Source of the DNA: a virus
Lineage: Duplodnaviria > Heunggongvirae > Uroviricota > Caudoviricetes
Length of the DNA: 15,087 nucleotides
IMG/VR virus record: IMGVR_UViG_2698536392_000024
Coordinates: 1 to 15,087 of that record
Direction: 5' to 3' (one strand)
In this document: positions 3,323 through 3,618 of the stretch, one piece after another
Layout: every line of letters starts with the position of its first letter
Position numbering within the stretch: position 1 is the first letter of the stretch
The notes under the pieces: model-generated
Database searches by the model: none
The model's input: only the letters and a program-made list of their open reading frames with translations
What the model was told of the DNA's origin: nothing
Translations under genes and position numbers: made by a program

Positions 3323-3444
3323 GCTTATTTTTCGCCAGATTATTTTTCAAAAAATTCCCGTGCATAAAAATTTGAGGAGGCGGTCGGTTCTGGGCGGGGT
3401 CGGGTTCGTCCTGAAAACTCCCCCCACCCCGTCCGGCTGCCTCA
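3323..3444. other. Candidate cos / terminase recognition region (speculative)
   Basis: Position between HNH and TerS as in HK97-like cos phages; G-tract / C-tract inverted repeat CGGGGTCGGG (3396-3405) and CCCCACCCCG (3426-3435) with strand asymmetry. Confidence 0.3.
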
Positions 3445-3618
3445 TCAGCGATTGCGGAAACATTCCATAACCTCGCGGTCACGGTCGTTTAATCGCGTCG
3501 CTGTGATGCGTTCTGCGCGTCCTGATGCTTTATCTTTATGCCCTGTTTCCTGTGCCTTCCATGCGTCACGCTGCCTTATAAGTCCACGGATAAGGCGGTT
3601 TTGTTCCCGCTCATTCAT
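3445..3618 (-). CDS. Possible small ORF (57 aa) between HNH and TerS
   Basis: ATG at 3618 overlaps the last HNH codons (GATGAATGAG); MNEREQNRLIRGLIRQRDAWKAQETGHKDKASGRAERITATRLNDRDREVMECFRNR; could be a chance ORF in GC-rich DNA. Confidence 0.25.
   Translation of the reverse strand: MNEREQNRLIRGLIRQRDAWKAQETGHKDKASGRAERITATRLNDRDREVMECFRNR

Follow-up and report, generated by a model that had tools for sequence, protein, structure and literature searches.

This work concerns the gap between the gene of an HNH endonuclease (hnh) and that of the small terminase subunit TerS (terS) in a 15,087-nucleotide stretch of viral DNA, positions 1 to 15,087 of the IMG/VR record IMGVR_UViG_2698536392_000024, which is called the window in the following. 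The window is a capsid-forming phage-inducible chromosomal island (cf-PICI) of E. coli 2013C-4830, related to the island EcCIEDL933, and its genes are all on the minus strand, referred to below as the gene strand. Our best explanation, to which we assign a probability of about 0.8, is that the element is a cf-PICI close to EcCIEDL933 and that the gap consists of a small gene of the family phrog_3173 and a cohesive-end (cos) packaging site of ca 95 bp, at about 3340–3434. Direct support exists for what the element is, for the small gene being a coding gene, for the conserved nature of the non-coding module and for the points at which the assemblies of relatives break.

A preliminary description of the window, made from the sequence alone, had proposed a candidate cos site and a possible small open reading frame (ORF) at this location. 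This reading is supported in its essentials, with the exception of an inverted repeat that is discussed below. The gap of 288 bp that it reported between HNH and TerS (3323–3610) is confirmed by the two flanking ORFs, at 3611–4051 and 2966–3322, respectively. The strand-asymmetric G-rich/C-rich segment is also present, the GC skew of the plus strand going from +0.57 (3360–3399) to −0.36 (3420–3459). The gap is made up of two parts, the small gene and a non-coding module, and the placement of cos between HNH and TerS is supported by the conservation of this module, by assembly breaks in relatives and by collinearity with the cos site of phage HK97.

The conserved non-coding module

Read on the gene strand from 3430, the module has the sequence GGGGTGGGGGGAGTTTTCAGGAC / GAACCCGACCCCGCCCAGAAC / CGACCGCCTC / CTCAAATTTTTATGCACGGGAATTTTTTGAAAAATAA, and the ATG of terS follows 17 nt further on. 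The four segments correspond to a G-block, a spacer of fixed length, the predicted cohesive end and an AT-rich block on the terS side of the predicted cut (Table 1).

To describe the conservation, 124 unique variants of the region were gathered from IMG/VR loci. The G-block and the AT-rich block are nearly invariant across these variants, and both are still recognisable in Proteus, in another distant lineage, and in Pasteurella, where TerS is only 66% identical. When the 120 bp of non-coding sequence beside terS are aligned between the E. coli and Pasteurella elements, a z score of 17 is obtained, and none of 500 shuffles gives an alignment as good. The module as a whole is far better conserved than neutral sequence. 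As to the part between the two blocks, a GGAC-to-CTCAAA distance of 31 nt is kept in 45 of 47 unique variants, with a core sequence that varies freely between lineages, and Proteus and an unplaced lineage share both this spacing and the order of the blocks.

The segment predicted to form the cohesive end differs at 5–6 positions between lineages, examples being CGACCGCCTC, CGAACGCCTC, CACCCGCCCC and CAGCCGCCCC. The ends of different lineages would not anneal together.

Predicted position of the cut

The position of the cut can be estimated from the assemblies of relatives. A linear metagenome contig of cf-PICI size, IMGVR_UViG_3300022664_000095 (15,518 nt), ends with ...CAGGACAAAACCCAAGCCGCAAGGCAC and starts with CTCAAATTTTTACGCACGG..., that is, its end reads ...AAGGCAC and its start CTCAAATTTTT. 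Since integrated relatives read AAGGCAC-CACCCGCCCC-CTCAAATTTTT, and thus carry CACCCGCCCC between this end and this start, exactly 10 nt are absent from the contig. Such a missing 10-mer would be the expected signature of a 10-nt 3′ overhang that has been removed at end repair. Transferred to the window by alignment, the nicks would lie between 3377 and 3376 on the gene strand and between 3387 and 3386 on the other strand, which makes 3376 position +1.

The second assembly is LR881103 ('vB_KppS-Ant'), which was built with SPAdes from Illumina reads of a phage preparation on K. pneumoniae DSM 30104 (PMC8006926) and has the gene content of the cf-PICI KpCIDSM30104. The record is linear; it ends with ...GGGGTGGGGGAGGTTTTCAGGAC and starts 22 nt before terS, and its integrated twin has, between these two ends, 69 nt that the record lacks. 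These can be divided into 27 nt lost at the right end, 32 nt at the left end and the 10-nt segment, with the predicted cut near the middle. A circular or permuted template would give overlapping ends, and the gap therefore speaks against it. As a side observation, 'Escherichia phage vB_KppS-Ant', which was published as a filamentous single-stranded DNA prophage, is the cf-PICI KpCIDSM30104.

A third record, PQ569648 ('Klebsiella phage', 106.5 kb), contains a whole cf-PICI, which begins at the start of terS and runs up to the end of the record, where the last codons of the small ORF are located. It is apparently a chimeric lysate assembly, in which the gap region is again missing. Under its full name, 'Klebsiella phage P12620-1' (PQ569648.1), the entry holds the complete cf-PICI from terS at 90644 onwards and looks like a phage–satellite chimera from one lysate. 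A search based on TerL, the large terminase subunit, for more virion-derived cf-PICI records returned only four that were already known. In addition, several apparent contig ends at cos were discarded, as they are truncations of the loci and not contig ends.

Taken together, the assemblies of the relatives suggest, indirectly, that cf-PICIs may have unique genome ends with a short 3′ overhang, from which the exact nicks in the window are predicted. It has also been reported that concatemers are formed via the cohesive ends at KpCIDSM30104's cos sites (He et al., bioRxiv 10.1101/2025.02.11.637232).

These results can be set against a scenario in which packaging follows a headful (pac) mechanism that starts near terS, the conserved block being a pac site and not a cos site. 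In its favor, the P27-family TerS of the window is unrelated in sequence to gp1 of HK97, and the termini of the window are known by inference only. However, the first two assemblies are not circularly permuted but linear, their unique ends lying on either side of a single short gap, and the concatemers reported for KpCIDSM30104 are joined by cohesive ends. Furthermore, HNH-dependent cos packaging has as its hallmark an HNH gene beside terS and terL (Kala et al. 2014, as cited in PMC11331095). We consider headful packaging to be extremely unlikely.

Comparison with HK97 and lambda

Phage HK97 has the same order of HNH gene, cos, terS and terL as the window, and its HNH protein gp74 is 38% identical to that of the window (E = 1e-18). 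The HK97 cos is cut between −1 and +1 to give 10-nt 3′ overhangs, and TerS binds at +15 to +29, the binding site being a C/G-containing stretch followed by an A/T tract (PMC11331095).

For the comparison, the cf-PICI sequences were anchored on the cut deduced from the contig ends, which is independent of HK97, and were compared without gaps from −60 to +36. With this anchoring, the identity to the HK97 cos is 39/96 for the window, 41/96 for the Klebsiella element and 45/96 for the Pasteurella element, to be compared with an average of 24 (sd 5) at other offsets. Offset 0 is the best one for the Klebsiella and Pasteurella elements and is within 2 nt of the best one for the window. The apparent collinearity with the HK97 cos is visible only in this cut-anchored ungapped comparison.

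A number of individual features occur at corresponding positions. A G-run is located at about −55 to −43 in both HK97 and the cf-PICIs, and it is at the same distance from the cut in the Pasteurella and Proteus cos regions. The T-tract is at +23 to +28 in the window, at +23 to +29 in Klebsiella and at +24 to +30 in HK97, and the distance from the cut to the terS start codon is 54 nt in the window and 49 nt in HK97. The tetranucleotide ACGC at +12 to +15 is common to HK97 and the Klebsiella, Proteus and Pasteurella elements, whereas the window and EcCIEDL933 read ATGC. A conserved ACGG(G/T)(A/G)ATTTTTT block is found at the offset of the HK97 TerS site, although the TerS family differs from that of HK97.

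A 10-nt 3′ overhang, which has been measured in HK97, is predicted for the cf-PICIs as well. There are also differences. The TerS proteins, of the P27 family with 118 aa in the window and gp1 with 161 aa in HK97, have no detectable sequence similarity. The bases at +16 to +22, which are read by the HK97 TerS, differ in the cf-PICIs, and this fits the reported mutually exclusive packaging of phage and satellite.

The cos site of lambda (cosQ-cosN-cosB) resembles that proposed for the cf-PICIs in having three parts, whose order is the same when seen in the packaging direction: an upstream element, the site of nicking and, on the side of terS, a region for the binding of TerS. Lambda, however, has 12-nt 5′ overhangs that are made without an HNH protein, and its cos has no sequence similarity to the cf-PICI one. 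By analogy with lambda only, the G-block could possibly be a termination element with a cosQ-like role.

It is important to point out what weighs against the explanation favored here. Breaks in metagenome and draft contigs can be an effect of the assembly where conserved sequence meets variable sequence. The exact cut is derived from one metagenome contig only, of unspecified library type, together with analogy, and the evidence on termini comes from relatives, with none from the window or from EcCIEDL933. When another 73 metagenome hits were scanned, no second contig with its end at the predicted cut was obtained, and in two Logan contigs of satellite size (16.6 kb) cos is internal. If gaps are allowed, the local alignment between the cos regions of HK97 and the cf-PICIs does not reach significance (z = 0.7), and for HK97 itself both 10-nt and 12-nt overhangs are quoted in PMC9410871. 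Because the TerS proteins are not detectably related, the transfer of the HK97 TerS site is by analogy only. Finally, the small protein discussed below is without detectable relatives of known function in Pfam, NCBIfam, PDB fold and profile searches.

Packaging model

The mechanism that we propose on this basis follows that of HK97. After induction, the island would replicate as concatemers, the P27-family TerS would bind ca 15–29 bp on the terS side of the cut, and two nicks at a distance of 10 nt would be introduced by TerL and the HNH protein. Along the gene strand, the cos site would consist of the G-block, the 21-nt spacer of free sequence, the 10-nt 3′ cohesive end (3377–3386) and the AT-rich block ATGCACGGGAATTTTTT. 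The latter is in the position where the HK97 TerS binds DNA, which makes 3348–3362 (+15 to +29) the predicted TerS binding site. The DNA would enter the small capsid made by the island with terS first and would end at the next cos, such that hnh, the small gene and the G-block are packaged last. For packaged DNA of EcCIEDL933 or KpCIDSM30104, the ends expected from the model are a right end ...GCCGGGCAC with the 3′ tail CGAACGCCTC, and a left end starting with CTCAAATTTTTATGC. In this scheme we infer where exactly the window is nicked, that TerS binds the AT-rich block and what the G-block does.

The transfer of EcCIEDL933 is known to be abolished by deletion of each packaging gene. That HNH, TerS and TerL would be needed specifically for cleavage at cos is suggested by analogy.

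The small gene

The rest of the gap is occupied by the small gene. According to the preliminary description, the start of a 57-aa ORF, which might be either real or due to chance, overlaps the HNH stop. The overlap is indeed there: the ORF runs from 3618 to 3445 with its ATG at 3618–3616, 2 nt before the TGA of hnh at 3613–3611, the string at 3619–3610 being GATGAATGAG. The ORF covers 166 of the 288 bp of the gap. The NCBI annotation pipeline PGAP calls the same frame from an upstream ATG at 3627, nine bases upstream, which gives a protein of 60 aa (WP_024166058.1).

The choice between a real and a chance ORF can be made in favor of a real, conserved gene. Residues 1–57 match profile positions 1–57 of phrog_3173 with E = 7.9e-35, and the diverged Klebsiella-type forms and those of other lineages match this family too. 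Since phrog_3173 is without annotation, the membership is silent on function. The frame, counted from the aligned ATG, is intact in 116 of the 124 unique variants and has the same end throughout (...FRNR or ...FRNRW). Three length classes are found, of 50, 57 and 58 aa, and they differ by whole codons, i.e., by in-frame insertions and deletions.

The pattern of substitutions indicates constraint at the codon level. The nucleotide diversity at codon positions 1/2/3 is 0.24/0.22/0.37, which resembles the adjoining HNH and TerS coding sequence and is unlike the non-coding stretch. The ratio of nonsynonymous to synonymous changes (dN/dS) is 0.36–0.53 in frame, compared with 0.7–1.6 when the frame is shifted in the length groups of 58 aa and 50 aa. 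The 57-aa group is little diverged and does not discriminate, with a value of 0.43 in frame and of 0.46 in the sole shifted frame that can be scored. The motif ATGA[A/C]TGA, in which the start of the small gene overlaps the hnh stop, is present in 123 of the 124 variants, and it fits a translational coupling of the small gene to hnh via the 8-nt overlap, which thus appears likely from the sequence.

It could be argued that the 57-codon ORF is not translated, and that the conservation is that of packaging signals at the DNA level, such as extended cos or termination sites, which happen to stay open in one frame. The ORF adjoins cos, its last 17 codons are the best conserved ones, as would be the case for a DNA site beside cos, and the dN/dS values are only moderately low. 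The lack of a Pfam or NCBIfam family and of a structural match would also be in line with this. However, the excess of diversity at the third position is found in the N-terminal and C-terminal thirds alike, every length variant differs by whole codons, and the intact frames include sequences at ca 35% amino-acid identity. The high dN/dS of the shifted frames and the nearly universal start/stop overlap are likewise at odds with it, and the Pasteurella element has the full cos module without the stretch of the small ORF. Lack of translation is thus considered to be very unlikely.

Conservation in related elements, which was raised in the preliminary description, is borne out, as the ORF is found at the same spot in cf-PICIs across Enterobacterales. 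A profile search finds members of the family in Escherichia, Klebsiella, Enterobacter, Citrobacter, Salmonella, Cronobacter, Pluralibacter, Pectobacterium, Erwinia, Pantoea, Hafnia, Xenorhabdus and Proteus, with identities down to ca 30%. The two most distant members that were inspected, from Proteus and from an unplaced Logan lineage, are both located between hnh and terS of a cf-PICI. In relatives the ORF is annotated as EDL933_RS34035 (EcCIEDL933) and CAD5235989 (vB_KppS-Ant). In the Pasteurella cf-PICI Pmp8, on the other hand, the hnh–terS gap is 127 bp and contains cos only, without the small gene. The gene is found only at the hnh–terS position, in enterobacterial cf-PICIs, and is not universal among cf-PICIs.

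As to the protein itself, no match was obtained in Pfam, in NCBIfam or in a fold search of the PDB, and an exhaustive profile search of 1.8 billion representative proteins gave only 26 small clusters and no larger family. The AlphaFold model has a pLDDT (predicted local distance difference test score) of 77 and consists of a long helix (3–41) and a short one (45–55). One can guess that the protein is an accessory factor in packaging. In this context, Alqurainy et al. found that deleting 'hypothetical gene 1792' in the packaging module of EcCIEDL933 severely reduced the transfer but did not abolish it. This '1792' may be the small ORF or the 93-aa gene after terL. A more specific idea is that the small protein, perhaps '1792', is a cf-PICI-specific packaging factor that acts with TerS or HNH at cos and helps to make packaging exclusive with respect to the helper, the variation of the spacer and of the cohesive ends defining groups of cf-PICIs that do not anneal with each other. 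We regard this as speculative and, at present, rather unlikely.

It can be mentioned that the HK97 genome (NC_002167) contains, at 39394–39597, an unannotated ORF of 67 codons, the ATG of which overlaps with the gp74 stop codon (TAATG) and the end of which is ca 135 nt before the right cos end. In position it is an analogue of the cf-PICI small gene, but the two are different and unrelated, with no sequence similarity between them, and the HK97 ORF has no Pfam hit.

The inverted repeat and a possible control function

The part of the preliminary description that does not hold concerns a 10-bp inverted repeat at 3396–3405 / 3426–3435. The 10-mers at these positions, GGGGTCGGGT and ACCCCGTCCG, are complementary at only 6 of 10 positions, and the true register is a different one (Table 1). 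A repeat of this kind, with 11 of 13 positions paired, occurs in 3.7% of dinucleotide shuffles of the region and is therefore only marginally unusual. One of its arms is the invariant G-block and the other is in the variable spacer. As a conserved hairpin or functional core the repeat can be dismissed, with at least 9 of the 13 pairs kept in only 10 of 66 unique variants and no compensatory changes, and the predicted cut is located ca 15–30 bp from it toward terS. The repeat is best regarded as a by-product, specific to the lineage, of a C-rich spacer that faces a G-rich block.

The repeat is relevant for another interpretation of the conserved block, namely that it controls the transcription or translation of terS and terL, as a promoter, a terminator or antiterminator, or a leader with the inverted repeat as its hairpin, and that cos is located elsewhere. 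The block is directly upstream of terS, the 11/13 repeat does exist and is marginally rarer than expected by chance, and there is no obvious Shine-Dalgarno sequence before the terS ATG. Against this, the hairpin is confined to the 10 variants mentioned above, the linear assemblies of the relatives break inside the block, and the block is collinear with the HK97 cos. Moreover, no sigma-70-like site was found on the gene strand, a terminator scan of the region gave no terminator-like site, and an Rfam search of 3200–3750 gave no family above threshold, the only hit being a sub-threshold miRNA. We judge an exclusively regulatory block to be highly improbable; regulatory and cos functions could, of course, coexist in it.

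The sole sigma-70-like match in the region is at 3316–3343 on the plus strand (TTGCCA, 16 nt, GATTAT), antisense to the packaging operon and across the terS start. With one match found and 0.2 expected, it is probably due to chance.

The element and its genes

The 451 bp around the gap match the chromosome of E. coli 2013C-4830 at 100%, and matches at 80–100% are found in 382 of 5,426 complete E. coli genomes. In the RefSeq annotation, the island is ca 14 kb long and is flanked by cspD and clpS. Its gene set comprises a tyrosine integrase, a helix-turn-helix (HTH) regulator, an Icd-like gene, DUF4222, a primase-family gene and a single-stranded DNA-binding protein (SSB), followed by the major capsid protein, an HK97-family prohead protease, portal, head closure and head–tail connector, and then by HNH, the 60-aa hypothetical protein, the P27-family small terminase, the large terminase and a 93-aa hypothetical protein. 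Each structural and packaging gene was confirmed by Pfam matches, while no tail or lysis genes are present in the PGAP table of the island. The integrase at 13849–15087 (412 aa), the HTH regulator and the primase-family gene correspond to the integrase, regulator and replication (primase) module that characterise cf-PICIs, which are islands of 10–18 kb. The gene content and order of cf-PICIs have been defined on EcCIEDL933 (Alqurainy et al. 2022, preprint 10.1101/2022.09.08.507074), and helper-dependent induction and transfer in small capsids have been shown experimentally for EcCIEDL933 and KpCIDSM30104 only.

Table 1. Coordinates of the features in and around the hnh–terS gap of the window.
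Feature	Position	Strand	Remarks
Small conserved gene	3445..3618	−	57 aa, basic, two helices predicted; phrog_3173; start overlaps HNH stop (ATGAATGA)
G-block	3408..3430	−	Gene strand GGGGTGGGGGGAGTTTTCAGGAC; −54 to −32 from the predicted cut; pattern in more than 190 related loci
Fixed-length spacer	3387..3407		21 nt; hypervariable core of 12–14 nt; gene strand GAACCCGACCCCGCCCAGAAC
Predicted 10-nt 3′ cohesive end	3377..3386		Gene strand CGACCGCCTC (3386 to 3377); position transferred by alignment
AT-rich block, terS side of predicted cut	3340..3376	−	CTCAAATTTTTATGCACGGGAATTTTTTGAAAAATAA; near-invariant in E. coli, Klebsiella, Proteus and Pasteurella elements
Inverted repeat, true register	3392..3434		Arms 3392–3404 and 3422–3434; 13 nt, 2 mismatches (11/13), 17-nt loop
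HNH endonuclease gene	3611..4051	−	146 aa; PF01844, E = 9e-8; phrog_144, E = 4e-43; PGAP: HNH endonuclease signature motif containing protein
TerS gene, P27 family	2966..3322	−	118 aa; PF05119, TIGR01558, phrog_83
TerL gene, split by frameshift	1322..2982	−	ORFs 2209–2982 (ATPase domain) and 1322–2215 (nuclease domain)

The assignment of TerS is based on PF05119 (E = 1e-23, 83.7 bits with a cut-off of 24.7) and TIGR01558 (59.6 bits with a cut-off of 45.6). In the case of TerL, the domains PF03354 and PF20441 land on separate ORFs, and PGAP flags the gene as 'frameshifted'. Relative to terL of EcCIEDL933, which reads GGAGGGGCTG, there is a 1-nt deletion near 2329, where the window has GAAGG-CTG. 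The primase-family gene (ca 9531–11344) is also marked as frameshifted by PGAP. Given the frameshifted TerL, the copy in the window is probably packaging-defective without complementation, and autonomous replication or packaging of the island is probably not possible, unless the frameshifts are assembly or sequencing errors. Because terL and the primase-family gene are frameshifted, the cos of the window, although intact in sequence, is probably not used without complementation. Directly after terL, at 1027–1308 on the minus strand, is the 93-aa hypothetical gene, without a match in Pfam or NCBIfam; it is also conserved in EcCIEDL933, as EDL933_RS08745.

EcCIEDL933 and KpCIDSM30104, the prototypes of the cf-PICIs, have the same gene order as the window (int, regulator, primase, capsid, protease, portal, head closure, connector, hnh, small ORF, terS, terL), and the two frameshifts set the window apart from them. 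The hnh–terS gap of EcCIEDL933 is ca 95% identical to that of the window, and from the predicted cut to terS the sole difference is an additional A in the run of As that directly precedes the start codon of terS. The predicted cohesive ends, CGAACGCCTC in EcCIEDL933 and CGACCGCCTC in the window, differ by one base, and the end of the spacer differs too. EcCIEDL933 also has another integrase and another integration site, roxA (ycfD)/phoQ instead of cspD/clpS. A near-identical packaging module is thus carried on different integration and replication backbones. As concerns the copy in the window itself, the gap is an ordinary feature of a known satellite family.

Conclusion

An HK97-type cos site is expected for this family of satellites, and the small gene is a conserved and uncharacterised component of the family's packaging operon. 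The cf-PICIs are recently recognised, widespread satellites that build their own capsids and steal only tails. In the parts of the literature available to us, the recognition of their own DNA is accounted for at the level of genes, and an account at the level of the DNA site, a position of cos or a mention of the small ORF by name was not found there. The present model describes cos at the level of bases, that is, the predicted position of the cut, a 10-nt 3′ end, the likely TerS site and a free spacer of fixed length. It would thereby provide a handle for testing the specificity of packaging, for spotting the ends of cf-PICIs in virome data and for building transducing vectors based on cf-PICIs.

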